A stretch of DNA of 64,000 nt from Acidobacteriota bacterium (GTDB lineage: Bacteria; Acidobacteriota; UBA6911; RPQK01; JAJDTT01). Position numbers and translations under genes: made by a program. This document shows, piece by piece, positions 11,452-64,000 of the stretch. The stretch covers positions 835,826-899,825 of the forward strand of contig CBDCOR010000022.1 in the NCBI GenBank assembly GCA_965219855.1, in the 5' to 3' direction. A model generated the notes under the pieces. The model was given only the letters and a program-made list of their open reading frames with translations, searched no databases and was not told the DNA's origin. Numbering within the stretch: the first letter of the stretch is position 1; every line of letters starts with the position of its first letter.

Positions 11452-11505
11452 TCGTTCAAGTTTCAGCTTAGCCCCGCCACCGGCTGCGCCGGATCGTACC
11501 TGAAA

Positions 11506-16809: not shown

Positions 16810-17182
16810 AGCTAACTCCGATGATTGAAAATTACCCAAAGCACCGTAATATCACCTCTTTGGACAAGTATCCAACGGTACCTGAGGACTCCCTTCCCAT
16901 TTCCCTGAGATACGACTAAGACTACGACAAGCATGGGTGGTATGTAAAGTCGGAACGTCTGAGTGTCGCAGTTCGCAGGTTGCTGAGGAAAGGCATCTAT
17001 TGATGCAGGAGGAAAACACAGCCGCGCACGGGGCCGCATGTCAGCAACATCAGACCCAGTTCCGCGGAGTAAGCGGGACTGAAGTTTTCACCGGAATGAT
17101 CCAGCGTGACCGGTTGCCGTACTGATCGGAAGGATCACCGACTCGTGATCCATGGGGTTAGCCCGCATTTCTCATCGCTAGT

Positions 17183-19051: not shown

Positions 19052-19211
19052 GCTAGTCTACTGCGTCGCCGCAATCACCCGCCCTGGCTGCGTTACGCTC
19101 GGTCAGCCTCCTCGACGTACTGTCAAAGTACGACTGCGGCGGCCTCGGTCGCAAGCCTTGCCAGGACGGCGCTTGCGACGCCTCGCTACGACGAGCGATG
19201 AGAAATGCGGG

Positions 19212-24404: not shown

Positions 24405-24406
24405 AT

Positions 24407-24567
24407 AAGAGGTCGCACGTCGGAACGTCTGAACGTCGCACGTCCCAAGTCCCAAGTCCCTCAGACTTCCGGTGAACTCTTCAGGCTGGCAGCTATCACG
24501 GGGGCTCAGCAAACCGAAACCCAGCCTGGGACGTGCGACGTGCAGACGTTCCGACGTGCGACTCTTT
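24407..24567. repeat. REP-like palindromic element, full length.
   Basis: The ~40-nt arms are AAGAGGTCGCACGTCGGAACGTCTGAACGTCGCACGTCCCA and its inverted partner. It lies in the convergent gap between the ABC transporter gene and fabI. Confidence 0.6.
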
Positions 24568-25399
24568 AATCTGCCTCCGGTTCCCCGTATAACGCCTCCA
24601 GGACCGAATCGCTGATGCCTACGGAACTGAACCCACCGTCGTGATAGATGTTCTGCATGGTTACTTTGCGGCATAAGTCGGAAAGCAAGGCTACTACAAA
24701 GTCGGCGCAATCGCCGGCTTGCGCGTTTCCCAGGGGGGACATCTTGTCGGCGATATCATAGAGCTGATCGAAGCCTTTGATTCCTCCGCCTGCAGTTGTC
24801 TTGGTGGGGCTCTGTGAGACGGTGTTGATGCGGATGCCTTTTTGTCCCAGGTGGTAGCCCAGACTACGAGTAACGCTCTCGAGCAGGGCTTTGGCGTCTG
24901 CCATGTCGGAGTAGCGGGAAAAGACTCTCTGCGCACCGATGTAGGTGAGCGCCGCAATACTTCCCCCTTCGTTGAGGGCGTCGGCCTTCAAGGCCTGGCT
25001 TACGATTCGGTGTAGAGAGAGTGCTGATACGTCTAGGGTCTTGTGGAACCAGTCGTAGTTGAGATCATCGTAGGATCTCAACTTTCGTACGTTAGGTGAC
25101 ATGCCAATCGAGTGGACGATAAAATCCACCTTGCCCAAGCTTTGCTTCAATTGCTCGAAAGCAGCCTCGACATCCTGGCTGGAGCTGGCGTCACAGGGAA
25201 TCAAGGGAGCGTCGTCACAAAGCTTTGCTAGCTCCTGCACTCTTCCCAGGCGAAAAGCGACCTTCACATTTGAAATGGCCAGGCGGGCTCCTTCTCTGTG
25301 ACAGGCGAGTGCGGTGTGCCATCCCAGGCTGTGCTCGTTCAACGGTCCGAAAACGATTCCCTTCTTATCTCTCAGCAGACCATAGCTTCTTTGCTCCAT
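24566..25399 (-). CDS. fabI: Enoyl-ACP reductase FabI (NADH).
   Basis: The start is taken at MEQRSYGLLRDKKGIVFG. The SDR-like fold carries the FabI-type YxxxxxxK region (YIGAQRVFSRYSDMADAKALLES). Confidence 0.75.
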   Translation of the reverse strand: MEQRSYGLLRDKKGIVFGPLNEHSLGWHTALACHREGARLAISNVKVAFRLGRVQELAKLCDDAPLIPCDASSSQDVEAAFEQLKQSLGKVDFIVHSIGMSPNVRKLRSYDDLNYDWFHKTLDVSALSLHRIVSQALKADALNEGGSIAALTYIGAQRVFSRYSDMADAKALLESVTRSLGYHLGQKGIRINTVSQSPTKTTAGGGIKGFDQLYDIADKMSPLGNAQAGDCADFVVALLSDLCRKVTMQNIYHDGGFSSVGISDSVLEALYGEPEAD

Positions 25400-26755: not shown

Positions 26756-27301
26756 ATGTCGATCTGGAAGTTGCTGGGCTTAGAAGGCAAGGGACCGATT
26801 GGGAAGGGCAGTAACGATGCGGGGGAGGACGCCGAAACCATCCGCAAGATTACACATGCCCTGGAGGAATTGCCCTCGGATCAAGCCCGGTTCCTAGCGG
26901 TCTTCGCCTTCATCCTGAGTCGCGTAGCCCACGCGGATCTCGAGATCAGCGAGGACGAGACCAGGGAAATGGAAAGGATCGTCAAAGAGATGGGATCGGT
27001 CCCCGAGGCACAGGCAGTTCTAGTAGTTCAGATCGCCAAGACCCAGAGCCTCCTCTTCGGAGGAACCGAGAACTTTCTGGTAACGAGAGAGTTCAACAAG
27101 ATTGCAACCCGTGAAGACAAACTCAAGCTGCTGGAATGTCTCTTCGCCGTCTCCTCTTCAGAAGAAGGTATCTCCAGCGCCGAGGACACCGAGATCCGTC
27201 AAATCAGCCGCGAGCTTCTTCTGGAACACAGCGACTTCATCGCCGTCCGGTCCGTGTATCGGGAGCATTTGAACGTCTTGAAGAAGAGGTCGCACGTCTG
27301 A
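26756..27301 (+). CDS. TerB-family (tellurite-resistance TerB-like) protein.
   Basis: Two acidic helical repeats (EISEDETREMERIV, ISSAEDTEIRQISREL). The last four codons are encoded by the REP-like repeat. Confidence 0.65.
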   Translation: MSIWKLLGLEGKGPIGKGSNDAGEDAETIRKITHALEELPSDQARFLAVFAFILSRVAHADLEISEDETREMERIVKEMGSVPEAQAVLVVQIAKTQSLLFGGTENFLVTREFNKIATREDKLKLLECLFAVSSSEEGISSAEDTEIRQISRELLLEHSDFIAVRSVYREHLNVLKKRSHV

Positions 27302-27430
27302 ACGTCTGAACGTCGCACGTCCCAGATCCCCCAGACGTCAGCTGGACTTGTCAGGCTGGCAGGTATCACGGGGCTCAGCAAACCGGACCCCAGCTTGGGT
27401 CGTGCGACGTTCAGACGTGCGACCTCTTTT
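27284..27430. repeat. REP-like palindromic element whose right arm is one GAACGTC unit shorter.
   Basis: AAGAGGTCGCACGTCTGAACGTCTGAACGTCGCACGTCCCA ... TGGGTCGTGCGACGTTCAGACGTGCGACCTCTT. Confidence 0.6.
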
Positions 27431-27618
27431 ATATAGGTCGACTCCGGGTTAATTAAGTACCCCGTAGATCTCGAGACCGTGTCTGTGGGCAATAGGCGTA
27501 ACCGCCTTTACAGGTTCTCCGATCTGCTCCAGCATCTTGGAGCCGTACTTCATATAACCGAACATCGTGCCAGCCCAGTAGGACTGAGGATCCACGTCTC
27601 CGTAGTAGAGCCACTAGA

Positions 27619-29486
27619 CCCAAAATAAGCGCAAGTTCGAAAATAGACCCCTTTGTCGGCTCCGAGGAGCCATTTTGGAGACCTAAATTCTAAATTTCGG
27701 CGCGAAGTCACTCAGAACAGGCACGTGTTCAGCTGTCCTCCACGCCGATCGCTCAGGGAAAACGATTCTGCCCTCTTGGGGGGCGTTTGTAGAGACACCT
27801 CGCCCCAGCTCTGGCGACCCTCGGAGCTACTTTATCTCCTTTCAGTTTCAGGTAGCTGGCCGGTGTTTCAACCACTTACTGCCTTCCAAGAGAAGACGGC
27901 TCCAACCATTGACATCCAGCAGCCGATAGACCAACTGTCGGCCCCTGCGCAAAATCTGGCAGGGCATTTCAATGACCTCTCGCAGGAAACGGCGATACTC
28001 CATCTTCACCAGCTCTCGGGCTTGCAGTCGCGCCGGCAGCACCAACCCCATCCAGGCCTTCAGATTCCAGGCTTGAGCCGCAATCACCAGATAGGCCCAG
28101 TTGGCTACCAGCGTATCCGAGGGCATCCGCAGGGCCTCGACTCCGTTCTTGAGTTGTTCAATGACGTTCTCCTGGTTGCAGCGCCGGTTGTTTTCCCGTA
28201 CGACTCCCGCCGTTCCCAACGTTCTGGCCGAGATATTGGTGACATAAAAGTGGTAGCGCGTCTGCGGCAGCAGCCGCTTCTGGCCTTTCTCGACCAGGAT
28301 CGTCTTGCGCAAGATCACCATCCGATAGGTTCGCTTCGCTTTGCTCGGACGGTAGTCGATCTCCGCAATCTCTTCCCGTTCCAGCGTCAGCGTCTTGAAC
28401 CCGCGTCTCTTGACAATCTCCGGCTTCACTTTGTCCCGCCGCTGGCGCCGCTTCTTCCCTTTTCCTTTCCCCTGGCTGGGGCCCCCAGCTCTTTCCATCT
28501 CGCTTCTGGCAACGCCTCCGCCCACTTGACGAAGCTCGGATGGGCGTCGATCCCGAAGTCAAACTCCACGCCCGCCTCCGTCCAACGGTCAAAATGAGCC
28601 GTCAGCGAAAAATCCGTGTCCCCGCGCAGGCGCACCTTCCGAAAACCCGCCTCTCGAACCAGCTCGATACTCCGATCCAGCCATTCGGCCGCTCCCTCAT
28701 GAGAGGGACGGTTGCCCGAGCGGTTGACCGCATAGAGCACCTCTCCCGTATTGGCCAGCGTCACGATCAGCGGCGCATAGCCCCACTGCCCGTCGTAGCT
28801 GATCTCCATCCCTTCCTTGCATTCGCCGCTCGTGGGGGCCATCGTCCCATCCACGTCGATCTCCGCCCGTTGGAAGAAACGGGCCGGTTGTTGGGCCCAG
28901 ACCTTGAGGCGGCTGGCATTGACGGCTTCCATCAGATCCACCACGTCGGGCGCGTCAAAGCGGCGCACAAAGTCTCCGGCCGTGCTGGGGGCGGGGATCT
29001 TCTCGGCTCCCACCGCCTCCAGGAAACTCACACTCTGACGTCGCAGTTCAATATCCTGATAGCGGGTCCCGCCCGTGGCCACGTTGTAGATCAGGCTCAG
29101 GACGTGGTCCGATTCGTGGTACGGTTGGTGGCGTTTGAGCAGCGTCACCGCCTGGTCAATGGCTTTCCCCAGCCCACTCCACTTCACCACCTGCTGCAGC
29201 AGCCCCAGACCACCGTAACTGACCGCACCCGTTTTCTCCGAGACCTCGTAGCTGATGACCTCGGGCGAGAGCACCGGTTTCGGGTCTTGACCGTTCCAGC
29301 TGGGGCTCAATCGCTGAGCAACCTCTGCTTCCCGTTTGCGGATGATTGCGCTATCCTTTTTCTTCACCTGAAATGCCTCCTTTCGGCTTGTTCTGAAGTT
29401 TCTTTGACAACCCCAGAATACCCGTCAGGTCTGGCATTTCAGGTGTTTACATGTGGTTTAGTCCACTTTCATCTACTTCTTTTGGG
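27619..29486 (-). mobile_element. IS1380-family insertion sequence, copy B, about 99% identical to copy A.
   Basis: The terminal inverted repeats are the same as in copy A. The 6-bp direct repeat ACTAGA flanks both ends. 1868 bp, that is 1 nt shorter than copy A. Confidence 0.85.
27848..29367 (-). pseudogene. IS1380-family transposase disrupted by a 1-nt deletion (frameshift).
   Basis: Two overlapping ORFs (28426-29367 and 27848-28525) together cover the 506-aa protein of copy A. Copy A reads CTGGCTGGGGCGCCCCAG where copy B reads CTGGCTGGGGCCCCCAG. One Ile/Val substitution is also present. Confidence 0.8.
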
Positions 29487-29772
29487 ACTAGACTCGTTTG
29501 ACCCCCATGCTCTTGATCTGGGACATCATCTCGTTCAGGAGCTTCTCGGTGTAGAGGCCAAAGCCGACGTCGTCAGGGAAATCAACCGTTGCAGAAAGCA
29601 TGAAAGGACGCCACTCGCCGTCCCTGCAGAGGCTGAAACGAGACCGATGCCCAAGGCGCTGGCTAGCATCAGGAAGCGGTGTCTATTGGATCTGGTCGAA
29701 TCGGGAATCAACATGTAGATTCTCTCCTATCGGTTGTTGCGTCTCGGTTGAGGTAGGACCTGATTCTGGGGC

Positions 29773-32163: not shown

Positions 32164-32298
32164 GCCGCCTGGCGGAGTGCCTGCGGAACATCCCAGTTTA
32201 GGTATCCCCTTCCGGTGTTGGGGCAGACCATCGGAACTAGGTTTCAGAATCATTATTGAAAATCATCTAACGTCATTGAGCCCAAAATTGCCCTATCT

Positions 32299-32316
32299 TG
32301 TACACTGGTGTACAAT
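32299..32316. promoter_or_regulatory. Perfect inverted repeat TTGTACAC-TG-GTGTACAA immediately upstream of the vapB start. Candidate autoregulatory operator.
   Basis: It lies 8 nt upstream of the antitoxin ATG. Confidence 0.4.
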
Positions 32317-32323
32317 CGATACC

Positions 32324-32578
32324 ATGAAGGTGACGATTACCGAGGCGCGACGGAGGCTGCCGGAACTGGTTAGCAGGGTCAAGGAGGATGAGGGTCTACG
32401 CGTCCGGATTACCGTCCATGGAGATGTGGCGGCTGAGTTGCGAAGCTGCCCTATCGATCCGCCTCTTGGCGCGGCGGCGAAACGGCTTAGGGAACTCATG
32501 GCCCGACTTCCGGCTCATCGGGGAGGTAAACGAAATATCTCTGAGCAGATCAACCAAAATCTCTACACCAAGAAGTGA
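32324..32578 (+). CDS. vapB: Type II antitoxin (Phd/YefM-like or VapB-like).
   Basis: 84 aa starting MKVTITEARRRLPELV. Its stop overlaps the toxin start. Confidence 0.6.
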   Translation: MKVTITEARRRLPELVSRVKEDEGLRVRITVHGDVAAELRSCPIDPPLGAAAKRLRELMARLPAHRGGKRNISEQINQNLYTKK

Positions 32579-32991
32579 CGCTCCCACCGCGCCTCTTCTG
32601 TGACACGTCGTTCTTCTATGCTTGCCTGGATTCCTCAGATGTGAATCATTCCCGCGCCGGCCAGCTTATCGAGGAGCTTGTCGCCTCGGGTAGCGACTTC
32701 ACGACTACCTGGGATGTTGTCAGCGAAACCGCGACACTCTTGCGTTACCGCCACTCGTTCGCCGCCGCTTGGACATTCCTGAGTGAGGTCAAGCCGACGC
32801 TTCGGGTTGTCCAATACGGAGACAGAACAAGAGCCGAAGCGGAAGAGGTTTTTCGAATCTACGCGAAGGATCGCCGACTTTCCTATTGCGATGCAGTCTC
32901 CTTCGTTGTCGTGACCAGCCTGCTCAACAACCTACCTTGCCTAGCGTTTGATCGTGACTTTCAGAGATTGGGGCTGACCGTGCTGACTTGA
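32575..32991 (+). CDS. vapC: PIN-domain toxin VapC.
   Basis: 138 aa. The acidic PIN residues are in place (DTSFF..., WDVVSE, CDAVS). Confidence 0.8.
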   Translation: MTLPPRLFCDTSFFYACLDSSDVNHSRAGQLIEELVASGSDFTTTWDVVSETATLLRYRHSFAAAWTFLSEVKPTLRVVQYGDRTRAEAEEVFRIYAKDRRLSYCDAVSFVVVTSLLNNLPCLAFDRDFQRLGLTVLT

Positions 32992-33065
32992 CCCGGATTT
33001 TTCGTCGCCCGTCGTAGCGAGGCAACGAAAAGCCTTTTTCACAAGGCGCTCGATCATTCAGGGGG

Positions 33066-33296
33066 GAACTTCAGACGGACGGGTGTGGCGACGGTCTCCA
33101 GGCCGCCGTGCGTCGAGTCAACGGCTCGACGGAAGAATACTTCGTCCTGGAGACCGAAGCTACGTCCGAGTTTCAGGTCAGTGCCACCCCCAGCGTTGCT
33201 GCCGCATTCGAGAAAGAAACTTTCGTTGTCTCTAGGCACGAACATCGACAGCGGCGATTCCTACGCCGGTCAATGCTCGATGAAGTTTCAGCTTAG
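33066..33296. repeat. Family-4 palindromic element, a longer variant.
   Basis: GAACTTCAGACGG ... CTCCAGGCCGCCG ... CCTGGAGACCGAAGCTACGTCC ... GATGAAGTTTCAGCTTAGG, shared with 11506-11630. Confidence 0.45.
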
Positions 33297-33335: not shown

Positions 33336-34574
33336 ATGCTATGCTGCACATGCATGGATACGCTGACCGAATTGACGGAGAAATTCCGCTCTGTATGGCC
33401 CCTGTTGGATGAACGAACGCGGCGGATTATGGCGGCCAGTGAAGCGAGAGCGTTGGGCCATGGCGGAGTCAGTTTGGTACGCCGTGCCTGCGGACTGTCG
33501 CGCAAGGCAATCGCTAAAGGAATCCGTGAAATCGAAGAGGGTTTCGTGCCCATGGAAGGCCGCATCCGGCGGCCCGGAGCCGGAGGCAAGCCCCTGACGG
33601 TTTCGGACCCGGGGCTGGTGGAGCAATTGGAAGAAATGAGCGAGGTCCAAACTCGGGGTGACCCGGAGTCTCCGTTGCGTTGGATTTGCAAGAGCACGCG
33701 GGCCATCGCGAAAGAACTGGCCCGGCACAAACACCCGGTCAGTCATACGAAGGTGGCGCAGATCCTTCACGACCTCGACTACAGTCTGCAGAGCAATCGG
33801 AAGACCGAGGAAGGGAAAGATCATCCGGACCGCGACGCCCAGTTTCGGCACATCAGCGCCACCGTCAGACACTGCCTGAGGGAAGGCAGTCCGGTCATTT
33901 CCGTGGATACCAAGAAGAAAGAACTCATCGGCAACTACGACAACGCGGGCCAGCAATGGCTTCCCGCCGGGCAGCCGATCAAGGTTCAGGGTCATGACTT
34001 TCCCACTCCCGACGTTCCCCGTGCCTATCCTTACGGCGTTTATGACATTGGGCGCAATACCGGCTTTGTCAATGTCGGCACCGATCACGACACGGGAGCG
34101 TTTGCGGTCGCCTCCATTCGCGGCTGGTGGCGCCAGGAAGGGAGACGGATCTATCCGAATGCAAGAACGATACTGATCACCGCCGACGCCGGCGGGAGCA
34201 ACGGTTGGCGGTTGCGCCTTTGGAAATTTGAGTTGCAGAAGTTCGCAGACGAAACGGGCCTCCCGGCTTCGGTCTGTCATTTTCCACCCGGCACCAGCAA
34301 ATGGAACAAGATCGAACACCGCCTCTTTTCTTTCATCTCTTCGAACTGGCGCGGCGAACCTTTACGAGACTACGAAACAATTGTTCAACTCATCGCGAAG
34401 ACAACGACAGCTAAAGGACTCAAAGTGACGTGCCGGCTAGATCGTCGCAAGTATCCCACTGGACGCAAAGTCTCCAATGAAGAAATGAAGCGAATCCAGA
34501 TGCGGCCCAACCCGTTATTTCGCAAGTTGCACCATGAACTTAACAACCGCGCGGGGTGTAAAAAACTGCCCTAA
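33336..34574 (+). CDS. ISAzo13-type (Rhodopirellula-type DDE) transposase, apparently 3'-truncated.
   Basis: The N-terminus LTEKFRSVWPLLDERTRRIMAASEARALGHGGVSLVRRACGLSRKAIAKG matches ISAzo13-family transposases. The C-terminal 22 aa read through an antisense RM-gene fragment, so no family-typical C-terminus is expected. Confidence 0.65.
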   Translation: MLCCTCMDTLTELTEKFRSVWPLLDERTRRIMAASEARALGHGGVSLVRRACGLSRKAIAKGIREIEEGFVPMEGRIRRPGAGGKPLTVSDPGLVEQLEEMSEVQTRGDPESPLRWICKSTRAIAKELARHKHPVSHTKVAQILHDLDYSLQSNRKTEEGKDHPDRDAQFRHISATVRHCLREGSPVISVDTKKKELIGNYDNAGQQWLPAGQPIKVQGHDFPTPDVPRAYPYGVYDIGRNTGFVNVGTDHDTGAFAVASIRGWWRQEGRRIYPNARTILITADAGGSNGWRLRLWKFELQKFADETGLPASVCHFPPGTSKWNKIEHRLFSFISSNWRGEPLRDYETIVQLIAKTTTAKGLKVTCRLDRRKYPTGRKVSNEEMKRIQMRPNPLFRKLHHELNNRAGCKKLP

Positions 34575-35577
34575 TGCCTTACCACGCATCGTTGCGGTGA
34601 GAAACGTTTCGAACAAGCGGCCGTTCAAATCCTCATCGACAGTGTAGAGATCAAGGTGCTCAAGGAATAAGACCGCAGCCTTCACAGTCAGAGGCGCTAG
34701 TTGAATGCCCTCACTGGGCTCAAATATCCGCTTCTTTTCACCTTTTGCGATCTGAGCCTCAAGTTGCTTTGCGAGTTGAGCGAAAAGGATTGTATCGATG
34801 GGGTTGTCCGTCGTACTTTCCATCTGCTCAATCCAATCAACAGAAAAGCGAACCGCATCGGCTGGCACGGCCTCCGCCCCGGCTTCGATCTTGTTTTCAA
34901 TCAAATACTCACCGAGGCGACGGTCTTCGTCGATCTTCACAAACATGACCTTGGCGAACTCGTAAAACGCAGAGGCGGGGCTACGCTTTTCGGCTTTCCA
35001 GATCCTCCGATGGCAAGACTCGAAGATAGCCGGAAGCTCCACAGGGTGCAACAGAGCGAAAATCGAAGGTGTTCCCCTTCGTGCCTTGACCTGTAGGGAT
35101 CTCAGTCAACGAATCGCGGGCTATAGCTGAACAAAGGGCCTCAAACACGGGATGCCCATCAACAAGTTCAGCGAACGCCAGTGAATGCATCACTTTGTCG
35201 CTATCGTAGTGCTTGACGACCAACCGATGCCCGTTGATGCCCATGCAATACTGCTCGGGCTTCGGCTCCGACATTCGTCGGCGAATCACTGAGGCGTAGA
35301 GCTGCGCATCGTGGACTCCAGCTTGAGCGCTTTCATTGGGGTGTTTGGCGTCAATAATCAGAACAGGCTTGACCCCTTTGGTTTCAAGATAGTCTGCCCC
35401 GTACCCAAGATGTGCCAGTAGGGCATGATAGCCGGTGCCAAGAACCTGAGAATGGTACAGGTGACCCATGCCGGGGCGATTGCCGGTAATCCGCTGGAAC
35501 CAGATTTGGATCAGGCTTACCTGGGATTTTCCCTCAAGATACTCAAGGCTCGCGGAATCCTGATGGGCAACAGCCAC
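34515..35577 (-). pseudogene. Fragment of a type I restriction-modification methylase (N-terminal domains only) with an internal frameshift.
   Basis: Two overlapping ORFs are present. The upstream one has an HSDR_N-like block (PVLIIDAKHPNESAQ). The downstream one ends at the HsdM motif GQFFTPRAVVKFMVQLAK, immediately before the catalytic region, which is absent. Confidence 0.6.
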
Positions 35578-36315: not shown

Positions 36316-36324
36316 GTTATGATT

Positions 36325-36366
36325 AAGAGGTCCCACGTCGGAACGTCTGAACGTCGCACGTCCCAG
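36325..36366. repeat. REP-like element, left arm only.
   Basis: AAGAGGTCCCACGTCGGAACGTCTGAACGTCGCACGTCCCAGG with no matching right arm before the IS1634 copy 2 end. Confidence 0.4.
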
Positions 36367-36444
36367 GTCACGGCTCACCGGTAGTATTTTCCAACCTTCA
36401 GGTTTGCGCTACTGTCAGTCCAAAGCAGTCTGTTGCCGGCTAAG

Positions 36445-38401
36445 CCGAAGTTACCCTGAAAACTAGCTGAAAAACAACCTGTAAGCCATTGTGGATCATC
36501 AGGTAAGGGTCTTTTTGTATTCGACAATCTGTACCCATGTAATAGTTGGTTTAGTGTCCTTTATTGTCGGTAGTATGTGATATTATAGTGCCCATGTACA
36601 TCGAATCCGTTCCCAACCGCAACTCGCCCCCGGCCATTCTCCTGCGCGAGTCCTACCGGCAAGCCGGCAAGGTGCGCAAGCGCACTCTGGCTAACCTCAG
36701 CAAGTGGCCCGCGGAGATCGTCGAAGGCCTGCGCAGCCTCTTGAAGGGAGGCTCCGTCATCTCCGACTTGAGCCAAGCCTTCCAGGTCCAGCGCACTCGC
36801 CCCCATGGTCATGTGGCGGCCGTCTTGGGTACCCTGCGCCGCCTCGGTTTGGAGCGCTTACTGGCCACTCGCAACAGCCTGCAGCGCCGCCTGGTAGTGG
36901 CCCTGATCGTGGCGCGCATCCTGGAGCCCCGCTCCAAGCTGGCCACCGCACGCGGATGGGATCCCCAGACCCTGTCCAGCAGCTTGGGCGAGCTCTTACA
37001 GGTGGAGGCCGCGACGGCCGATGATCTGTACGGCGCCTTGGACTGGCTGCTCGTTCGACAACCAAAGATTGAAAACCAGCTGGCGGCTCAGCGCCTGCAG
37101 GACGGTTGCCTCGTGATCTACGACGTCACCTCGACCTACTTCGAAGGGAGGAGTTGCCCGTTGGCCCAGCGGGGGTATTCCCGAGACGGCAAAGGGGGTA
37201 CGCTGCAGATCGTCTTCGGCCTGCTGTGCGAAAGGCTGCCCCGTCGCGGTCGAGGTCTTCGAAGGCAACCGAGCGGACCCCACAACAGTGACCAGCCAAA
37301 TCCAAAAACTGCGCCAACGCTTCGGGTTGCGCTCGGTGGTGGTGGTCGCCGATCGAGGAATGCTGACGGAAGCCCGCATTCGGGAGGAGCTCAAGCCGCT
37401 GCCCGGCATGGGCTGGATCACGGCCCTGCGAGGCCCTCAGATCCGCAAACTGTTTCAATCCGGTCCGCTGCAGCTGTCCCTGTTTGATCAACGCGACCTG
37501 GCCGAGATCCAGAGCCCGGACTACCCCGGGGAACGGCTCATTGTCTGCCGTAATCCCCTCTTAGCGGAGGAACGGGCCCGCAATCGCCAGCAACTGCTCC
37601 AGGCGACCGAGCTGGAGTTGGAGAAGATTGTCCAGGCAACGCAACGTCCGAAGCGTCGCTTCAAGGGCAAGGATCGGATTGCCCTGCGGGTGGGCAAAGT
37701 CCTCAACCGCTACAAAGTGGGCAAGCATTTTGTCCTGGAGATCGGCGAGGAGTCCTTCTCCTACCAGCGCCGGCAGGAGCGCATCGAGCAGGAGGCGGCA
37801 CTGGACGGGATCTATGTGATTCGCACCAACCTGGCCCGCGAGCAAATGGATGCCGAACAAACGGTGGCTGCCTACAAGGGGTTGTCCGTCGCCGAACGGG
37901 CCTTCCGCAGCTGTAAGAGTGTCGATCTGAAGGTCCGACCCATTTACCACCATCTGGAGGATCGGGTCCGCGCTCACGTCTTTCTGTGCATGCTTGCCTA
38001 CTACGTCGAGTGGCACATGCGACAGAAGTTAGCTCCGATCCTGTTCGACGACGAGGATCCCGAGGCGGGGAGGCAGCTTCGCGATTCGGTGGTGGCACCC
38101 TCTCAGCGCTCTCCTCAGGCCCTCCGCAAGGCTCACCGCAAGCGCACCGTTGAGGGTGGGCCCGTGCACAGCTTTCAGACCTTGCTCAGCGATTTGGCCA
38201 CGATCTCCAAAAACCGGATTCAGCCGCAGTTGCCCGGCTCAGCAGCCTTCGACAAAATCACCCGTCCCACATCGCTTCAGCAGCGAGCCCTGGATCTCCT
38301 CGGCGTTCGTCTATAATGTACCCAGTACCGACGCAGCTGATTTGTAGCATTACCCCAATCTTAACAATAGGTTACATCACTTTTCTACGAGGTAACTTAG
38401 G
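36445..38401 (+). mobile_element. IS1634-family insertion sequence, copy 2, about 99% identical to copy 1.
   Basis: It has the same terminal inverted repeats as copy 1. 1957 bp. No clean target duplication (flanks GCTAAG / ATTAAC). Confidence 0.85.
36564..38316 (+). pseudogene. IS1634-family transposase disrupted by a frameshift.
   Basis: Copy 1 reads GACCGTCAAGGCTGCCCTGTC where copy 2 reads GAAAGGCTGCCCCGTC (5 nt shorter). This splits the ORF into 36564-37487 and 37288-38316. Confidence 0.8.
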
Positions 38402-38769: not shown

Positions 38770-39140
38770 CGCTCCACCGAGACGGGAATCATGTGGAGGT
38801 TCAGGAGCCGGTCCAGACGATAGGCCGCGATGTTGTACTTGTAGGAGTCCCGGAAGTTGACCTCCATTCCCCGAGCCGTGGCATAGGAGGACTTCGACAC
38901 GTCGACCGACTGGATGCTGGCGTCGTGAGTGTAACTTCGATCGGAAAACGTGGCCCGCTTGGTCCCGGTCACACCCGTGTGGACCTTCTTCATCTTCATC
39001 ACCTCTGCCCTTATCAGGAATGATTCCTTGTCGGCGTCCGACCAGTTGGAAAGAGGAGCGGGACTCTCCTGTGACCACACCTGGGATGAAGAAACGAACA
39101 GAGTAAAGGCCAACAAGGGGGCAGCACATCTGCCTCCCAT
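38770..39140 (-). pseudogene. N-terminal fragment (signal peptide plus about 100 aa) of a paralog of the secreted kinase-like protein at 40371-41216.
   Basis: SNWSDADKESFLIRAEVMKMKKVHTGVTGTKRATFSDRSYTHDASIQSVDVSKSSYATARGMEVNFRDSYKYNIAAYRLDRLLNLHMIPVSVE aligns with the intact paralog. Homology ends abruptly at 38770. Confidence 0.5.
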
Positions 39141-40370: not shown

Positions 40371-41216
40371 ATGCTCAAGAAATCGACCGTAATGTTTGCC
40401 TATTGGTTCCTGCTTGTCTCTTCTCCCCCCCTGTGGTCGCAGCCGCCACCCTCCACCCTTTCGGCCACCTGGTCTGACGCCGAGAAGGAGACGTTTCTGC
40501 TCAGGGCAAAAGTGGTCAAGATCCAGAAGGTCCCCATCGGTGTCACCGGGACGCGGCGAGCCACCCTTTCCGACGGACAGCAAACCCACGACGCCAGCGT
40601 CCAGTCGATCGACGTCTTTAAAGAGAAATTCACTACGCCCCGGGGCAAGGAGCTGAATTTCCGGGATAGCTACAAGTACAACATCGCCGCCTACCGCCTG
40701 GACCGACTCCTGAATCTGCACATGATTCTGGTCTCGGTCAAGCGCAAGATCAAAAGGAAGAGGGCCGCGCTTACCTGGTGGGTCGACCGGGTCAAAATGA
40801 TGGAGAAGGCACGCTTCGAGCAGAAGATCTCAGCTCCGAACCTAGCCCAATGGAACGATAAGATGTACCAGGTCCGGATCTTCAACGAACTCGTCTACAA
40901 CACGGATCCGAACATGGGGAATCTGCTCATTACCGAAGACTGGAAGCTGGTGATGATCGACTTCACCCGGGCCTTTCGATGGCACAAGGAGCTGAGGTCC
41001 CCCGAGAACCTGAACAACTGCAAACTGGACCGGAGGTTCTACGATGGGATGCGGCAGCTGAACCGGGAGGTTGTGAAGCGACGTGTGGACGGCGCACTGA
41101 CGAATAATGAGATCAAGGGAGTCATGGCCCGGCGAGAGAAGATACTGAAACACTTCGATGAGCAGATTGCCAAGCGAGGTGAATTGGCCGTGCTCTGCAG
41201 CCTGCCGGGGCATTAA
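40371..41216 (+). CDS. Secreted protein with a PI3K/PI4K-type (type II PI4K-like) atypical kinase fold.
   Basis: Strong SD (GGAGG) 7 nt upstream of the ATG. Sec signal peptide MLKKSTVMFAYWFLLVSSPPLWSQ. The catalytic-loop-like NTDPNMGNLLI resembles NTDRHxxNxLI and is followed 17 aa later by MIDFTRAF, an IDFG-like motif. Confidence 0.55.
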   Translation: MLKKSTVMFAYWFLLVSSPPLWSQPPPSTLSATWSDAEKETFLLRAKVVKIQKVPIGVTGTRRATLSDGQQTHDASVQSIDVFKEKFTTPRGKELNFRDSYKYNIAAYRLDRLLNLHMILVSVKRKIKRKRAALTWWVDRVKMMEKARFEQKISAPNLAQWNDKMYQVRIFNELVYNTDPNMGNLLITEDWKLVMIDFTRAFRWHKELRSPENLNNCKLDRRFYDGMRQLNREVVKRRVDGALTNNEIKGVMARREKILKHFDEQIAKRGELAVLCSLPGH

Positions 41217-41883
41217 ACCGTTCAAGACAAACTCCCATCCATCCGCCCGAGATCGACTGATACCCGTCCCCGCGCTCTTCCATTCTATTAGTCTCGACCT
41301 ATTGTTCCGACAGAACGACTGAAGCGAGGAGCGCGCGCGAAGTCGCATGACCGCTTGGTCTGCGCGGAATGACTGCTCTTGGCGTGCGCCGTGCAAAGGC
41401 GGCGCTTTCCCAGTGGGTGAAAGTCCCACCCGGCAACTGCTCCAGCCGGAAGCAACCGGAGCAACTAGGGAGGTAGCGAAATGGTTGAAGCCTCGGGTGA
41501 AGCGTGTCACGAATTGGTGACAGCGCGAGTGTGCAGTGCCCTTCTCTCGCCTAGACATCTGAGTTTAGCTGTCAAGGACTATTATTCACAGGGTCTCTTC
41601 CGCGGGGACTGTTTCCCCTGGGAATCCTGACCTCTTCAACAGACCATTTCCCTGGAAAGACGGACTTCCCGGGTGTAGCCTAGTGAACTGCAGCATTGCG
41701 AAGCCGAGTCCGGCAGAGCCGCGAACGATCTGATGTGTCGGCAACATGAGCCCAAGTTCCGGCCGTCGAAGACGACGAAGGCAGGAGAGAGCTGGACAAC
41801 AACAGAATCTCCCTCTCCCCGACCGAAGTTTCTTCCAGGTACGATCCGGCGCAGCCGGGGGCGGGGCTGACCCAAACTAGAGG

Positions 41884-55537: not shown

Positions 55538-55558
55538 ATCACTTTCTGGTTGGAACCA

Positions 55559-55825
55559 CACTGGAACGTAAATACGGCAACGTTTGCAGATGGGGCTTGC
55601 GAGGCGAGATCAAGGCAGGAGGAGGAAGTCGATGCTCTTCCATCTGCGACGACGACCAACGCAGAGATCGTCCGCAACCCCCATCTGCCCTACGGGTGGC
55701 GACGCGACACGCCGATTTCTTTGTCGCTCCTCCTCCTCCATGATACCAAGCATCGAGTTCGTCGTCGCTTCGCGACCTCGACCCGTCGCGCTCGCCACAA
55801 ACGTTGTCGTATTTACGTTCCAGTG
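55559..55825. repeat. MITE family 3, a ~267-bp palindromic element, full copy.
   Basis: The 28-nt terminal inverted repeats are CACTGGAACGTAAATACGGCAACGTTTG / CAAACGTTGTCGTATTTACGTTCCAGTG. An internal long inverted repeat is built around GGAGGAGGAAG...CCTCCTCCTCC. Confidence 0.6.
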
Positions 55826-56169
55826 TCACTGCCCGATGCCGGCGTGGAACCGACCCCTGCGAGTTGGGCAACGGCGGAAGTCCCAGTTGAAGTCGCTCCC
55901 AGTCTATTATCCTTTTAACTGATTCATTATAATCATGTTGTCACGATATCTGAATAGTTCAACCGGACAGTAGTGTTCCAGTGTACTAAATTCTGCTTTG
56001 GCAAGCTGATAAGTACTGAGATGAAATAAGATGAAGACCTCTGCTATTGGTCACAAGCACCAAATTCCGAAAAGGTCTTCCACCATCACCCCAATATTGC
56101 CAATCCAACAGTGCCCGACCGGCACCTACCTTGACTCCGTTCGGGAGAACTGCGAGGCTCTTGATCAGA

Positions 56170-56934: not shown

Positions 56935-57178
56935 GGGTTCACCCTGTATCGCTAACCTCCTCTCTCCCTTGCCCGTGTCCTTGCCTTTGCCCTGACCCCA
57001 TCTTCTGGCCGCATCAAGGCCCGTAAGCAACCCGGCCTACAGCAACAGGATTTTCAAACTCCATCCGCCGGCTGTACTCGCCGTCAGCGAAGACGTTCAC
57101 AAGAATGTCCCCTGGCAGACGGGCAAAGGCAAGGGGGAGGGCAAGGGAGGAAGAAAAGGCGAGGGAACGCACCGCTAG

Positions 57179-57353
57179 CCCGGATTATTCATAAGTTTTC
57201 GTAGCGAGGCGGCGAAAGCGCCGTCCTGGCAAGGCTTGCGACCGAGGCCTCCGCAGTCGTACTCGTGCAGTCCGTCGAGGAGGCCGACCGAGCGTAACAC
57301 AGCCAGGCCGGATGATTGCGCCGCCGCAGTAGAAAACTTATGAATAATCCGGG
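57179..57353. repeat. MITE family 1 variant with the same core but different terminal inverted repeats.
   Basis: Perfect 22-nt terminal inverted repeat CCCGGATTATTCATAAGTTTTC, flanked by CTAG direct repeats at 57175-78 and 57354-57. The core is GTAGCGAGGCGGCGAAAGCGCCGTCCTGGCAAGGCTTGCGACCGAG..., shared with the 59069 copy. Confidence 0.6.
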
Positions 57354-57366
57354 CTAGACTAGCTGC

Positions 57367-57486
57367 TCAAGCGCCGATTCGGACCACGAATAGGGTAAGC
57401 AAAATAATGCCGATGACGCCCAACCAGGCGACCACGAAACCCACTACGGATTGCTTCGAAGGTCTTCGGATCTCAAGGTCCCACAT
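57367..57486 (-). CDS. Possible small single-TM protein of 39 aa downstream of the SSS transporter gene.
   Basis: GGAG 8 nt upstream of the ATG. MWDLEIRRPSKQSVVGFVVAWLGVIGIILLTLFVVRIGA. Speculative. Confidence 0.2.
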   Translation of the reverse strand: MWDLEIRRPSKQSVVGFVVAWLGVIGIILLTLFVVRIGA

Positions 57487-57531
57487 GTTTCACACTCCGC
57501 TGCTAGTCGTTTCTCCAAGCCAGCTCGACCA

Positions 57532-59034
57532 TTACTCCAGCTCTACCTTGATCCCGGCATCTCGCAGCTTCTGCTCTTCTCCTACCGGCGTGTGCAGGAT
57601 GGTATAGAACCGATCCAGTCGTTTCTTGTCGGCGGGGGGCGTCACCAGGCTGACCACGATCATGGCGAGGAAACCGCCGCTCAGATAGAGGGCGAACTGG
57701 TCCGCCAGCTCCCAGTCCCAGAGAAAACGGGAGAGGTACCAGAGGAAGGAGGAAACCAGAACCGCGGCCCAGGCTCCCCTTGCGTTGCAGCGGCGCCAGA
57801 GGATTCCTCCCCAGAGTGCAATCCCGAAGAACGCCCCCAGCGACCAGGTTAGTTTCAAGATACCGACGACAGAATCCGAGGTCAGCGTCACGAGCACGCC
57901 TCCCGCCACCACCACCAGCGCCACCCAGCGGCCCACGGTCAGATAGTGGGAGTCGGGCGCCTCACGCCGCATGTAGCGTTTGTATACGTTCTTGACCACC
58001 AGGGCCGAGCCATCGACCATCAATGAATCGCAGGTAGACATGACCGCCGCGACCATGGAGGCGAGCATAACGCCCACGAGACCGATGGGGAGCAGGTCCC
58101 TGGAAGCCATTCCGAAAGCGTGTTCGGGGTCGCTGAGGTTGGGATAGAGGGCCACACAGGCAACGCCGACAAAGGCCCAGGCCAGCGTGCAGATGCGCTT
58201 GAGCATGTTGCCGTAGGTAAATCCGATTCGCCCTTCGAGCTCGGTCTTACCCGCGCCACCAATCTCCATATGATGGGGTTGGGCCACAATTCCTACCAGC
58301 GCGTTGATTACGATCATCAAGATGTAGAAAAACGTCACCCGGTCGTATCCAGGGGGAGGATCCCCGGGAGCGATCAAGCTGAACATCTCGCCTGGTACCT
58401 GCTGGTGCAGGCCGCTGAAGCCTCCCAGTTCGGCCAGGACGAAGGGGACCAGCAAGAACGAGAGGACGATGATGAAGAAACCCTGAATGAAGTCGGTGAT
58501 GATGGCCGCAGGCAGGCCTCCGGCAAGACCGTAGGCGAGAAAGAGTACGGTCATGACGGCAATCGCAAACTCCGGACTGACGGCCCCTCCGGTGATGGCA
58601 CTGGCCGTTTTCCCCGTCCCCAGGAGCATCAGACCGATCTGCAGTGAGATGTAGATCAGGCCGTAGATCGTGTAGAAGATTGCCAGAGGCTGACTGAAGC
58701 GGTCTTCGAAGAAGTCCGCAGTGGTCAAGTACCGCATCCGGCGAAAGAGGGGGGCGATGAGCCAATAAAAAGGAGTCGTAAAGAGGTAGAGCCACTGGTA
58801 CCAGATGCCGGCCATTCCCAGCTTGTAGGAAGCGCCGGCAACCGAGACGGCGTGGTCGGTGTGAGTACCCGTCCCGAAGGCGTGCATCAGCATGAAGGCC
58901 TTACCGAACTTTCTCCCACCCATGAAATAGTCGCCGACGGTGGTGATCTTGCGGGCGGCCCAGAGCCCAGCGAAAGTCACACCCACGAGGTAGAGCAGAA
59001 GCGTGAAGAGGTCGAGTGAATGCAATCCGAACAT
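57532..59034 (-). CDS. Sodium:solute symporter (SSS) family transporter.
   Basis: About 500 aa with 13 or more TM helices. The start is taken at the ATG (MFGLHSLDL). Confidence 0.8.
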   Translation of the reverse strand: MFGLHSLDLFTLLLYLVGVTFAGLWAARKITTVGDYFMGGRKFGKAFMLMHAFGTGTHTDHAVSVAGASYKLGMAGIWYQWLYLFTTPFYWLIAPLFRRMRYLTTADFFEDRFSQPLAIFYTIYGLIYISLQIGLMLLGTGKTASAITGGAVSPEFAIAVMTVLFLAYGLAGGLPAAIITDFIQGFFIIVLSFLLVPFVLAELGGFSGLHQQVPGEMFSLIAPGDPPPGYDRVTFFYILMIVINALVGIVAQPHHMEIGGAGKTELEGRIGFTYGNMLKRICTLAWAFVGVACVALYPNLSDPEHAFGMASRDLLPIGLVGVMLASMVAAVMSTCDSLMVDGSALVVKNVYKRYMRREAPDSHYLTVGRWVALVVVAGGVLVTLTSDSVVGILKLTWSLGAFFGIALWGGILWRRCNARGAWAAVLVSSFLWYLSRFLWDWELADQFALYLSGGFLAMIVVSLVTPPADKKRLDRFYTILHTPVGEEQKLRDAGIKVELE

Positions 59035-59068
59035 GCGTTGTCCTGTTGTTCCGGGAGCGAGCACTTAG

Positions 59069-59257
59069 CCCGCATTTCTCATCGCTTGTCGTAGCGAGGC
59101 GCCGCAAGGGCCGTCCCGGCAAGGCTTGCGACCGAGACCACTCGTGGCTAGCCGCCGCAGTCGTACTTGTACAGTACGTCGAGGAGGCCGACCGAGCATA
59201 ACACAGCCAGGGCGGATGATTTCGGCGTCGCAGTAGACCAGCGATGAGAAATGCGGG
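59069..59257. repeat. MITE family 1, intact 189-bp copy.
   Basis: Terminal inverted repeats CCCGCATTTCTCATCGCT / AGCGATGAGAAATGCGGG, flanked by TTAG at 59065-68 and 59258-61. The TTAG at 59258-61 supplies the TAA stop of the DUF1501 gene. Confidence 0.65.
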
Positions 59258-60736
59258 TTAGGCGAGGAGCTGGTGGGCTACATTACCTGCTACGTCGGTC
59301 AGGCGAAAATCCCTACCCTGGTAACGATAGGTGAGCCGCTCATGGTCCAGACCCAGGCAATGAAGAATCGTGGCGTGAAAATCATGGACGTGGATCTTGT
59401 CCTCCACAATGTTCAAACCCAGATCATCCGTCTGGCCCACGATCTGTCCACCCTGGATCCCGCCACCCGCCATCCAGAGCGTGAAAGCGAAGGGTTGGTG
59501 GTCACGTCCTCGATTGTCGCCGTCGACGACCTTGCTGCGCTCAACCATGGGAGTACGTCCAAATTCGCCTCCCCAGATGACCAGCGTTTCGTCCAACATG
59601 CCTCTCTGCTTTAGATCCTTCAAGAGTGCTGCGGTAGGCTGATCGGTCATCTCGCAGTTGCTCTTCAATCGCTTGTTGAGCTCGGTGTGATCGTCCCAGC
59701 TGGAATGGTTAAGCTGCACGAATCGGACTCCCCTCTCCACCAATCTGCGGGCCAGCAGACAATTGATTGCAAACTGATTCGAATTCGTCTTTCTGGCGGT
59801 GGCATAAGAATTCGGCTGATTATTTACACCATACAGGTCCTGGATGTGCTCGGGTTCCTGGGAAAGGTCCAACAGCTTCGGAGCTGCGCTCTGCATGCGA
59901 AAGGCCAGTTCATAGGAGGCAATTCGGGAGGCAATCTCGATGTCGCCGACGTCGGCGAAGTGTTTCTGGTTGAGGTCACGAAGCGCGTCGAGTCTGGCCC
60001 GTTGACTGTTTTCGCTGATTCCTTCCGGATTGGAAAGGTAGAGCACCGGGTCTCCGCCACTTCGGAAGGGCACGCCCTGATAACTGGAGGGAAGAAAGCC
60101 ACTGGACCAGGCCTTGCCCCCAGAATGGGTTGGATCTCCCGAGCTCAACACGACGAAGCCGGGCAGGTTCTGGGACTGGCTGCCCAGACCGTAGGTGACC
60201 CAGGACCCCATGGCTGGCCGACCGGCAAGTGGTGCCCCGCAGCTGAACATCAACTGGCCCGGATGGTGGTTGAATTGATCCGTATACATGGAGCGGATCA
60301 TGCAGATATCATCGGCGCATTTTGCGGTGTGGGGCAGCAGGTCCGAAAATTCCATCCCGCACTCTCCATAGCGCCGGAATTTTCGCTGACTGGCCCAGAT
60401 CTCAGCCGTGGGTTTGATGAAGGCCAGCTTCAGGTCTTTGGTCATGGACGGGGGAAGAGGGGATCCCTCCCACTTCTTCAGCTCCGGTTTGGGATCGAAC
60501 AGATCGACCTGACTGGGCGCTCCCGCCATGAACAGGAAGATCACGTTCTTGGCGGTGGCTGGAAAGTGTGGAGTTCTGGGATGCAGGGGATTGAGCTGCG
60601 GGAGTTCAGTCGAGAGTCTACCCGCAAGGCCCTCCTGGGAGAGCAAGTTCCAGAGAGCGAGCAGACCCACTCCTCCTGCACACTGTTCAAAGAAGTGCCG
60701 ACGCGTCTGGATCTGTCTGAATTCCTGTAGATTCAC
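59258..60736 (-). CDS. DUF1501-family protein (sulfatase-like), TAT-secreted.
   Basis: RRHFFEQCAGGVGLLAL twin-arginine signal. The family-typical length. Confidence 0.8.
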   Translation of the reverse strand: MNLQEFRQIQTRRHFFEQCAGGVGLLALWNLLSQEGLAGRLSTELPQLNPLHPRTPHFPATAKNVIFLFMAGAPSQVDLFDPKPELKKWEGSPLPPSMTKDLKLAFIKPTAEIWASQRKFRRYGECGMEFSDLLPHTAKCADDICMIRSMYTDQFNHHPGQLMFSCGAPLAGRPAMGSWVTYGLGSQSQNLPGFVVLSSGDPTHSGGKAWSSGFLPSSYQGVPFRSGGDPVLYLSNPEGISENSQRARLDALRDLNQKHFADVGDIEIASRIASYELAFRMQSAAPKLLDLSQEPEHIQDLYGVNNQPNSYATARKTNSNQFAINCLLARRLVERGVRFVQLNHSSWDDHTELNKRLKSNCEMTDQPTAALLKDLKQRGMLDETLVIWGGEFGRTPMVERSKVVDGDNRGRDHQPFAFTLWMAGGGIQGGQIVGQTDDLGLNIVEDKIHVHDFHATILHCLGLDHERLTYRYQGRDFRLTDVAGNVAHQLLA

Positions 60737-63318: not shown

Positions 63319-63783
63319 ATGAATGCAGAAGAGCGCGTAAAAGAACTCAAGCTTGAACTACCTCCCGCACCTAGCCCGATGGCAACCTACCGTCCTTCGG
63401 TACGGGTCGGCGATATTCTCTACGTGTCGGGTACGGGGCCGTTTCGACACGATGGCAGCGTGATCAAGGGCAAGGTTGGAGTCGATCTCACCGTCGAGGA
63501 GGCGTATGAGGCAGCTAGACTGGTTGGCCTCAATGTCTTGAGTACGATGCGAGCGGCTCTAGGTAGCCTGGATAAGGTCGTGAGAATCGTCAAGGTGTTG
63601 GGATTCGTCAACGCCACCCCGGACTTCGAGGAACAGCCACAGGTCATCAATGGATTCAGCGACCTTATGGTCGAAGTCTTCGGAGAGGAGACCGGCAAGG
63701 GAGGCCGCAGCGCCGTCGGGATGGGGTCGCTTCCGCAAAACATCCCGGTTGAAGTCGAGGCGATCTTCGAAGTCACCGACTAA
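63319..63783 (+). CDS. RidA/YjgF-family protein.
   Basis: 154 aa with a chorismate-mutase-like fold signature ...VKVLGFVNATPDFEEQPQVINGFSDLMVEVFG.... Confidence 0.8.
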   Translation: MNAEERVKELKLELPPAPSPMATYRPSVRVGDILYVSGTGPFRHDGSVIKGKVGVDLTVEEAYEAARLVGLNVLSTMRAALGSLDKVVRIVKVLGFVNATPDFEEQPQVINGFSDLMVEVFGEETGKGGRSAVGMGSLPQNIPVEVEAIFEVTD

Positions 63784-63786
63784 GTA

Positions 63787-64000
63787 CACTGGAACGTAAA
63801 TACGGCAACGTTTGTGGCGAGCGCGACGGGTCGAGTTCACGAAGCGACGACGAACGCCATGTCTTTCTATAGTGGAGGAGGAGCGACAAAGAAATCGGCG
63901 CGTCCCGTCGCCACCCGTAGGGCAGATAGGGGTTGCGGACGATCTCTGCGTTGGTCGTCGTCGAAGATGGCCAAGCATCGTCTTCCTCCTCCTGCCTTGA
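63787..64000. repeat. MITE family 3, second copy in inverted orientation, truncated by the window edge.
   Basis: It starts with the same 28-nt terminal repeat and then follows the reverse complement of 55559-55825. Confidence 0.55.

Follow-up and report, generated by a model that had tools for sequence, protein, structure and literature searches.

A stretch of 64,000 nucleotides from contig CBDCOR010000022.1 of an Acidobacteriota bacterium (the whole 64-kb stretch is called the window below) carries, as indicated by sequence reading and a repeat finder, three full copies (A, B, and C; Table 1) and one solo end of a miniature inverted-repeat transposable element (MITE). Results of our analysis indicate that this element is a non-autonomous, gene-free DNA transposon of 175 or 189 bp, which uses YTAR as a target and would be mobilised in trans by a transposase of a particular subgroup of the IS1380 family; we consider this reading to hold with a probability of about 0.8. 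In Acidobacteriota of a clade related to a UBA6911 metagenome-assembled genome (MAG), the source of the window included, the element has spread and reached many copies. As judged by its sequence, it is an ordinary MITE that represents a new family in Acidobacteriota, and the IS1380-subgroup partner is deduced from identical ends and target behaviour. No description of this family was found in the literature. The three copies had been noted in the initial annotation of the window, and all of them were recovered with the terminal inverted repeats (TIRs) and the CTAG or TTAG flanks ascribed to them.

The extent of the family was assessed by scanning one genome per species with the invariant core 19-mer GGCAAGGCTTGCGACCGAG as a seed, which gave at least 83 loci; with an exact core word as the seed, core conservation is overstated and core-mutated copies are missed. 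The genuine loci among the matches listed are all located in five Acidobacteriota MAGs, namely CBDCUP, CBDCLS, CBDCMS, JAKZYH, and CAUZIZ (labelled "UBA6911"), and over more than 5 kb the window shares synteny and about 88% identity with a CAUZIZ contig. Core matches in Pseudarthrobacter (L027) and in a member of Hyphomicrobiaceae (L069) were rejected as chance 19-mer matches in other phyla. A blastn search of PLSDB plasmids with a MITE copy and with a related arm gave no match. The complete copies, 76 in number, fall into a 175-bp class (60 copies) and a 189-bp class (16 copies), the latter being distinguished by a 14-bp internal insert. The element is small, has no coding capacity, and forms a hairpin throughout, being a long imperfect palindrome with the outer 14-22 bp serving as TIRs that start with CCCG. 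Of the outer 22 positions, a mean of 20.25 are complementary in 68 copies, and 22 of 22 in copy A. The core proposed in the initial annotation to be shared by the three copies is indeed common to them, as each of two core probes (19-20 nt) matches copies A, B, and C and nothing else in the window, where about 0.05 chance matches are expected. The CCCG termini and the MITE nature of the element are likewise borne out by a family that is multi-copy and insertion-polymorphic.

The target of the family is YTAR, with a 4-bp duplication. In the 74 complete copies with both flanks, all taken from the core-seeded loci, the left flank is CTAG in 31, TTAG in 16, CTAA in 14, and TTAA in 7, and the right flanks are similar. 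YTAR is thus present at the left flank of 68 and at the right flank of 67 of the 74 copies, and it accounts for 0.32% of all tetranucleotides in the MITE-bearing loci. The 4-bp flanks are identical on both sides in 58/74 copies. A duplication of TA only, of the type known for IS630/Tc1-mariner elements, was ruled out because the 14 TTAG/TTAG and 12 CTAA/CTAA pairs, 26 in all, are direct, non-palindromic 4-bp repeats. The earlier proposal of a YTAG target is borne out in the 4-bp length and the TAG/TAA content of the site and was too narrow, since the target of the family includes CTAA and TTAA.

Mobility of the element is documented by two pairs of filled and empty sites. In a related MAG, the filled site of the MITE at L022:851-1039 reads ...GACCCCGA-CTAG[MITE]CTAA-ACTTTATCGGG, and the orthologous site in the window reads ...GACCCCGA-CTAA-ACTTTATCGGG, with a single CTAA that contains the stop codon of a 224-codon open reading frame (ORF); the flanks of the two sites are 86% identical. 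In the second pair, an A-type copy in L050 (filled: GGACATTCTAG[...]CTGGCGAAAC) corresponds to a single GGACATTCTAGCGAAAG, with one CTAG, at the same place in L015, which carries its own B-type copy about 75 bp beyond the empty site. These two comparisons indicate that elements with both types of ends are bona fide insertions. A further potential empty site, sought by comparing L067 with the window, was set aside because divergence of the intergenic DNA made it unreadable.

The initial annotation had also pointed to insertion on stop codons. Using a simple caller based on GC content at third codon positions (GC3), we analysed the gene context of 77 copies. None of them (0/77) lies inside a called gene, and the flanking gene pairs are convergent in 16 cases vs. 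divergent in 4. The target duplication coincides with the stop codon of a called gene in 9/77 copies (11.7%), copies B and C included, in which the TAA stops of the DUF1501 gene (59258-59260) and of the aminotransferase gene (19212-19214), respectively, lie inside the duplications. In the case of copy A, the TAG of the left flank closes only a 60-codon ORF, and a distance of 244 bp separates the copy from the end of the nearest called gene. As YTAR contains TAA or TAG read on either strand, the share of stop codons among YTAR sites that are intergenic or stop gives an expectation of 10.6%, which does not differ from the share observed (p = 0.71). The claim of landing on stop codons is therefore valid for copies B and C, does not extend to copy A, and does not reflect any excess. 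Because the availability of YTAR predicts the observed share, the coincidence with stop codons follows from the target and from selection against gene disruption and needs no preference of its own, which provides a simple quantitative account of why such elements sit on stop codons.

Where the source of the transposase is concerned, a search for CTAG followed by the first 13 nt of the MITE end led to L185, in which CTAG|CCCGGATTTCTCACC is followed, after 118 bp, by a gene for a 453-aa transposase of the IS1380 family (413.9 bits against NF033539, with a cut-off of 180). Complete insertion sequences (ISs) of this subgroup, of about 1.67-1.71 kb, were found in metagenomes. Both their ends are CCCG(G/A/C)ATTTCTCAC, in inverted arrangement, with abutting CTAG/YTAG flanks, and in all those listed in Table 1 the flanks directly abut CCCG; L198-L201 represent four distinct sites in one sample. 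The MITE terminus CCCGSATTTCTCA corresponds to the terminus of the subgroup, and the MITE termini (CCCGSATTTCTCAT) match the subgroup termini at 13/14 first positions. In an ungapped comparison with L198, 13-14 of the first 17 positions match, of which the first 13 are imposed by the search pattern. The clade also includes P0129, a close homologue annotated in a MAG of Candidatus Acidoferrum (Acidobacteriota). There is good evidence in these terminal sequences that the L185/L198 subgroup is the cognate transposase family of the MITE, because the position of the motif at both IS ends, its inverted arrangement, and the 4-bp YTAR flanks are independent of the pattern. A limited check of the literature found no paper linking a MITE to such an IS1380-family subgroup.

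Several observations weigh against this assignment. The sequence match of the ends was itself imposed by a search pattern that contained the terminus. In a tblastn search, an IS of the matching subgroup was not found in the window or in the 660 kb (83 loci) around the MITE copies, in which MITE-type end pairs more than 260 bp apart were not found either, except for the IS-split copy C; the end pairs in the 83 loci are otherwise all 170-200 bp apart. Beyond the first 14-17 nt, the similarity between the MITE and the ISs is weak, with one arm comparison giving z = 4.5 and the others being not significant; past the first 17 nt, a shifted match is formed by TTGTCGAAGCGAAG of the IS and TTGTCGTAGCGAGG of the MITE. 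An IS with the A-type terminus (CCCGGATWATTCATAAG) was not found, and a scan of viral contigs for it gave one chance match. Finally, several other IS families in the MITE-bearing genomes also insert at CTAG, so the partner cannot be recognised by the target alone.

In two metagenome loci and in several contigs of a viral collection, interiors unrelated to that of the MITE are bounded by MITE-type ends (CCCGSATTTCTCAYCRC) and CTAG flanks, which indicates that these ends are a mobilisation signal shared by several non-autonomous families. A 1017-bp element without an ORF (L171:2333-3349) has MITE-type ends, ATTAA flanks, and an unrelated interior, for which no Pfam or Rfam match was found.

According to the mechanism that we favour, an IS1380-family element of the matching subgroup would supply in trans a DDE transposase that binds both MITE ends, excises or copies the MITE, and integrates it at YTAR. 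Insertions inside genes would be purged, so that about one copy in nine would lie exactly on the stop of a gene, and at such sites the stop codon would be restored by the target duplication.

The ends of the copies are of two types. The initial annotation described them as two different sets of TIRs; they do differ, and yet they are not unrelated, since the A-type and B-type ends can be aligned position by position, with 15/22 and 14/22 identities, as expected for diverged homologues. The identity between A-type and B-type copies is 63% in the TIRs, 79% in the subterminal 25 nt, and 94% in the centre, as compared with 93%, 91%, and 94%, respectively, within the B-type. Two other MAGs contain A-type copies as well (L044, L067, and, in degenerate form, L050), which indicates that the A-type is a stable sub-lineage. 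The arms within each copy remain complementary (21-22 of 22 positions in A-type copies), both arms having changed together. As far as identity profiles can tell, the centre is equally similar between and within the types and yet the ends show a 37% difference, which points to a mosaic pattern rather than to steady divergence. The A-type may be a sub-lineage with diverged ends whose centre has been kept in common by recombination or gene conversion between copies; alternatively, its ends may have adapted to a second, related transposase. This mosaic of ends and centre is the sole mildly unusual feature of the family.

Folding of the element, which the initial annotation had suggested as a check, revealed a strong, imperfect hairpin of about 85 bp (-95 kcal/mol; z = -7.5 and -6.2). 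Compensatory double changes were detected by RNAalifold in 13/56 pairs, nearly all of them in the outer stem formed by the TIRs; at the pair 18-184, for instance, 50 copies have U-A and 18 have C-G. As RNA, the '+' strand folds about 7.7 kcal/mol better in 64/69 copies, via G.U pairs, but the copies are related and not independent, so that this asymmetry may simply be inherited. For the element, Rfam 15 gave no match at gathering thresholds, and at E <= 1 the region 57100-59320 gave only an unrelated weak small nucleolar RNA (snoRNA) match inside the transporter gene of the sodium:solute symporter family (SSF). The orientation of the copies relative to the upstream gene (42 same to 29, p = 0.15) and that of copies abutting a stop (7 to 2, p = 0.18) are not significantly biased. 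A role at the transcript level is possible but not supported by these results.

The IS1380-family element resident in the window (two copies, one of them inside MITE copy C) had been proposed in the initial annotation as the mobiliser. That proposal holds at the level of the family, on account of the ends and flanks of the L185/L198 subgroup, and the resident CCCAAAA element itself is a poor candidate. In its favour, its IS family is that of the subgroup with matching TIRs, it inserts at CTAG, and transposases of this family can mobilise DNA with imperfect, poorly matching ends, as is the case with TMos of Paracoccus (PMC3281130). Nevertheless, it shares only CCC with the MITE terminus (5/11 first positions), similarity of its arms to the MITE was not found, its duplications have 6 bp (NCTAGN) vs. 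the strict 4 bp of the MITE, and between its transposase and that of L185 the identity is only 27% over 130 aa. On these sequence comparisons, it is unlikely to be the source of the transposase, and we rate it lowest of all candidates. The usual duplication in the IS1380 family is of 4-5 bp. The CTAG in copy C that was hit by the resident IS arose by a G-to-A change (consensus CGCTGGTC, copy C CGCTAGTC). The two resident copies are 99.7% identical, and the transposase gene of the second one is apparently frameshifted, as tblastn splits at residue ~295.

Slightly better placed, and still improbable, is some other transposase with CTAG or YTAR specificity. A general search for elements of 0.6-3.5 kb flanked by NTAN duplications brought up a divergent, IS1380-like element of 2.1 kb (L005:1750-3849; ends CCTCGATTTCCACGG; 591-aa transposase) in a MAG rich in MITE copies. 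Its 4-bp CTAG duplications abut its ends, it shares CCNNGATTTC with the MITE (8/11 first positions), and in L148 and L156 an element with MITE-type ends CCCGGATTTCTCACCGC (L148:903-1088; 186 bp, CTAG flanks) lies 68 bp away from an IS of this type. However, the termini of this type (CCTCGATTTCCAC) are invariant in at least 70 copies, none of which has the MITE terminus, the arms of the L005 element show no significant similarity to the MITE, and the terminus of the L185/L198 subgroup matches the MITE much better. The L005 transposase gives a weak but full-length match to the IS1380 profile (61.7 bits, with a cut-off of 180). As for the IS5 group, its ends typically start with GG or GA, and CCCG ends were not seen in any IS5-family element. 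IS5 produces 4-bp YTAR duplications and shows a bias to non-coding DNA (PMC5009759), and the MITE resembles it in both respects but lacks an IS5-type transposase and IS5-like ends. Another explanation, to which we give no more credence than to a different transposase, assumes that selection acts on the conserved centre of about 110 bp as a hairpin module of RNA or DNA (for example, a protein-binding site, an attenuator, or a stabiliser of 3' ends) that has been swapped between two pairs of IS1380-type ends. The identity between A-type and B-type copies, being 94% in the centre and 63% in the ends, the strong fold, the better folding of the '+' strand, and the weak excess of same-orientation copies, both overall and at stops, would be in line with it. 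On the other hand, the orientation bias is not significant, Rfam matches are missing even at E <= 1, the compensatory changes are mainly in the TIRs with the inner stems being near-invariant and thus uninformative, the identity of the core is inflated by the exact 19-mer seed, the strand asymmetry may be due to kinship of the copies, and unrelated centres occur elsewhere between the same ends. Were it true, the family would be a vehicle spreading a functional structure to gene ends, and the hairpin could insulate adjacent genes, such as those of DUF1501 and the SSF transporter. The same small share of probability has to cover a variant in which complementarity of the arms is maintained through a transposition intermediate of hairpin or fold-back form, and not by transposase binding alone. 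Mobilisation by a transposase of the L185/L198 subgroup thus remains the reading that we prefer.

The L005-type ISs (L005 and loci L084-L163), which are very widespread, are 2.08-2.13 kb long, have ends CCTCGATTTCCAC(G/A) and almost always CTAG duplications, and encode transposases of 586-591 aa, which have an extra N-terminal region resembling a helix-turn-helix and at least 8000 scored homologues. Based on these sequence features, they may constitute an undescribed IS1380-related group. Other potential partners were rejected. For the ISAzo13 transposase gene beside the solo end, no matching inverted end was found, and the repeats common to different loci proved to be IS4-family and IS1182-family elements, neither with CCCG ends. 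The IS4-family element (L014:5928-7380, L061:4339-5787, and L082:3179-4639; 1.46 kb, ends CCCAATACTGTTCA, 402-aa transposase) has a 6-bp CCTAGC duplication and is inserted exactly at the CTAG flank of the MITE in these three loci, which indicates that MITE duplications create landing sites for CTAG-seeking ISs. CTAG/YTAR is a landing site common to at least four IS families in the MITE-bearing genomes.

Table 1. Coordinates of MITE copies and associated features in the window, and sizes, ends, and flanks of complete IS1380-family elements of the matching subgroup in metagenomes.
Feature	Position or length	Strand	Ends	Remarks
Copy A, left target duplication CTAG	57175-57178			sequence reading
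Copy A, MITE, 175 bp	57179-57353	+	A-type, CCCGGATTATTCATAAGTTTTC	perfect 22-nt TIR
Copy A, right target duplication CTAG	57354-57357			sequence reading
Copy B, left target duplication TTAG	59065-59068			sequence reading
Copy B, MITE, 189 bp	59069-59257	+	B-type, CCCGCATTTCTCATCGCT	size class with 14-bp internal insert
Copy B, right target duplication TTAG	59258-59261			59258-59260 is the DUF1501 TAA stop, minus strand
Copy C, left target duplication TTAG	17158-17161			sequence reading
Copy C, left part	17162-17182	-	TIR CCCGCATTTCTCATCGCT + AGT	last 6 bases (17177-17182), GCTAGT, are one copy of the IS duplication
IS1380-family element inside copy C, 1869 bp	17183-19051	-	CCCAAAA.../...TTTTGGG	transposase 17412-18932
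Second GCTAGT	19052-19057			produced by IS insertion into copy C
Copy C, right part	19058-19211	-		joined to 17162-17182, a 175-bp B-type element; core on minus strand
Copy C, right target duplication TTAG	19212-19215			19212-19214 is the class-III aminotransferase TAA stop, minus strand
Resident IS1380 element, second copy	27619-29486	-	CCCAAAA.../...TTTTGGG	flanked on both sides by ACTAGA (27613-27618 and 29487-29492)
Solo degenerate left end	32992-33030	+	CCCGGATTTTTCGTCGCCCGTCGTAGCGAGGCAACGAAA	directly after TGA stop of ORF 32575-32991
Empty target site CTAA, stop of an ORF	10897-10900	-		orthologous to filled site of MITE L022:851-1039
L198, L199, L201	1670 bp		CCCGGATTTCTCACCAG / CCCGAATTTCTCACCAG	flanks CTAG/CTAG
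L200	1670 bp		CCCGGATTTCTCACCAG / CCCGAATTTCTCACCAG, as in L198	flanks CTAA/CTAG
L195	1673 bp		CCCGAATTTCTCAC / CCCGCATGTCTCAC	flanks CTAG/CTAG
L192	1706 bp		CCCGCATTTCTCAC both sides	flanks ATAG/TTAG
L193	1563 bp		CCCGSATATTGC	flanks TTAG/TTAG

The genes neighbouring the copies in the window were confirmed with Pfam and NCBIfam as those of the IS1380-family transposase (17412-18932), class-III aminotransferase (19212-20546), sodium:solute symporter of the SSF family (57532-59034), and DUF1501 (59258-60736). The palindrome of copy A extends to 26 nt once CTAG is counted in, and the copy is located downstream of the SSF transporter gene and of a possible membrane ORF of 41 codons (57372-57497 on the minus strand). 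Copy B separates the stop codon of the DUF1501 gene from the start codon of the SSF gene and begins 34 bp upstream of the ATG of the latter at 59034. The initial annotation placed this copy in the promoter region of the SSF gene, a role that is only putative. Neither a sigma-70-like promoter nor an intrinsic terminator was predicted in or beside copies A and B by a scan that may not suit Acidobacteriota. Having the same orientation, the two copies bracket exactly the SSF gene and the possible membrane ORF, which gives a 2.1-kb unit that resembles a composite transposon. The solo end starts with CCCGGATTTTTCGTCGCC..., and its remainder has been replaced by another repeat family. It is preceded by TTGA and not by YTAR, the TGA (32989-32991) being the stop codon of the preceding ORF; a TAA-to-TGA change retaining the stop could possibly explain this.

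Bacterial MITEs, such as Correia elements of Neisseria and ERIC/IRU of enterobacteria, are non-coding, palindromic elements of less than 200 bp that have TIRs and a target duplication and occur in many copies, which are intergenic, often located at gene 3' ends, and polymorphic (filled or empty) between relatives. As compared with them, the acidobacterial MITE is similar in its small size, palindromy, TIRs, multi-copy state, intergenic siting, and filled or empty sites in relatives, and differs in its ends and interior, in a 4-bp YTAR rather than TA duplication, and in its host. With regard to the IS1380 family (IS1380, IS1247, ISEcp1; NF033539), the MITE terminus equals that of the subgroup represented by L185, L192, L195, and L198-L201, and the 4-bp CTAG/YTAG duplication is common to both; the MITE has no transposase, just ~14-17 nt per end are clearly shared, and the window's own IS1380 element, which has other ends and duplicates 6 bp, is a member of a distant subgroup. 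A re-assortment of ends and interiors similar to that seen here, with a single centre found between two kinds of ends and like ends found around unrelated centres, is a feature of TIMEs, which are Tn3-derived, inverted-repeat miniature elements of mosaic, non-autonomous nature (PMC4133298). TIMEs depend on another transposase superfamily, and the mosaic origin of our MITE is suggested by identity profiles. An identity with REP/REPIN sequences was rejected, as these lack a target duplication, have GTAG or CGTC heads, and are built of 20-40 bp units (PMC3733652), in contrast to the 4-bp duplication, CCCG heads, and 175-189 bp length of the MITE.

The analysis provides a poorly studied Acidobacteriota lineage with a documented MITE family, including its target, duplication, empty sites, and likely transposase family, and links a MITE to a subgroup of the IS1380 family. 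Such repeats break assemblies and confuse the annotation of the genomes of this lineage. The understanding of MITEs in general is not changed by this family.

The window contains other repeats and mobile elements. An IS1634-family element encoding a 585-aa transposase is present in two copies (20465-22425 and 36446-38401; ends CCGAAGTTACC/CCTAAGTTACC), flanked by CTTAAT/CTTAAT in one case and by GCTAAG/ATTAAC in the other, so that a YTAA core is again found at the insertion site. The ISAzo13-family transposase gene (33336-34574; NF033519, E 5e-166), for which recognisable inverted ends were not found, adjoins a gene for an antitoxin of the Phd family (32177-32578) and a fragment with resemblance to a MAD2 methyltransferase (34515-35051). 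A palindromic repeat family with GTCGCACGTC/GAACGTC motifs and arms of 36-47 nt, which are up to 97% complementary, occurs at 5663-5715, 16949-16980, 24401-24571, 27278-27433, and 36319-36371. Repeats with a GGTCTCCAGGCC core and GAAGTTTCAGCTTAG ends are located at 1195-1283, 11452-11625, 33078-33296, and 41816-41868, and it is a copy of this family that replaces the interior of the MITE with the solo end at 32992. A Rfam match to group II intron D1-D4 (RF02003, 71 bits) at 41411-41555 is preceded upstream by inverted arms of about 280 bp (38770-39049 / 40465-40744; 77-82% identity), which overlap ORFs of opposite orientation. A repeat of ~220-270 bp at 55558-55830 and 63783-64000, in inverted orientation and with 90% identity, was found also in L057:2978-3246, L075:3070-3315, and L077:502-791 (83-92% identity) and probably represents another MITE family.

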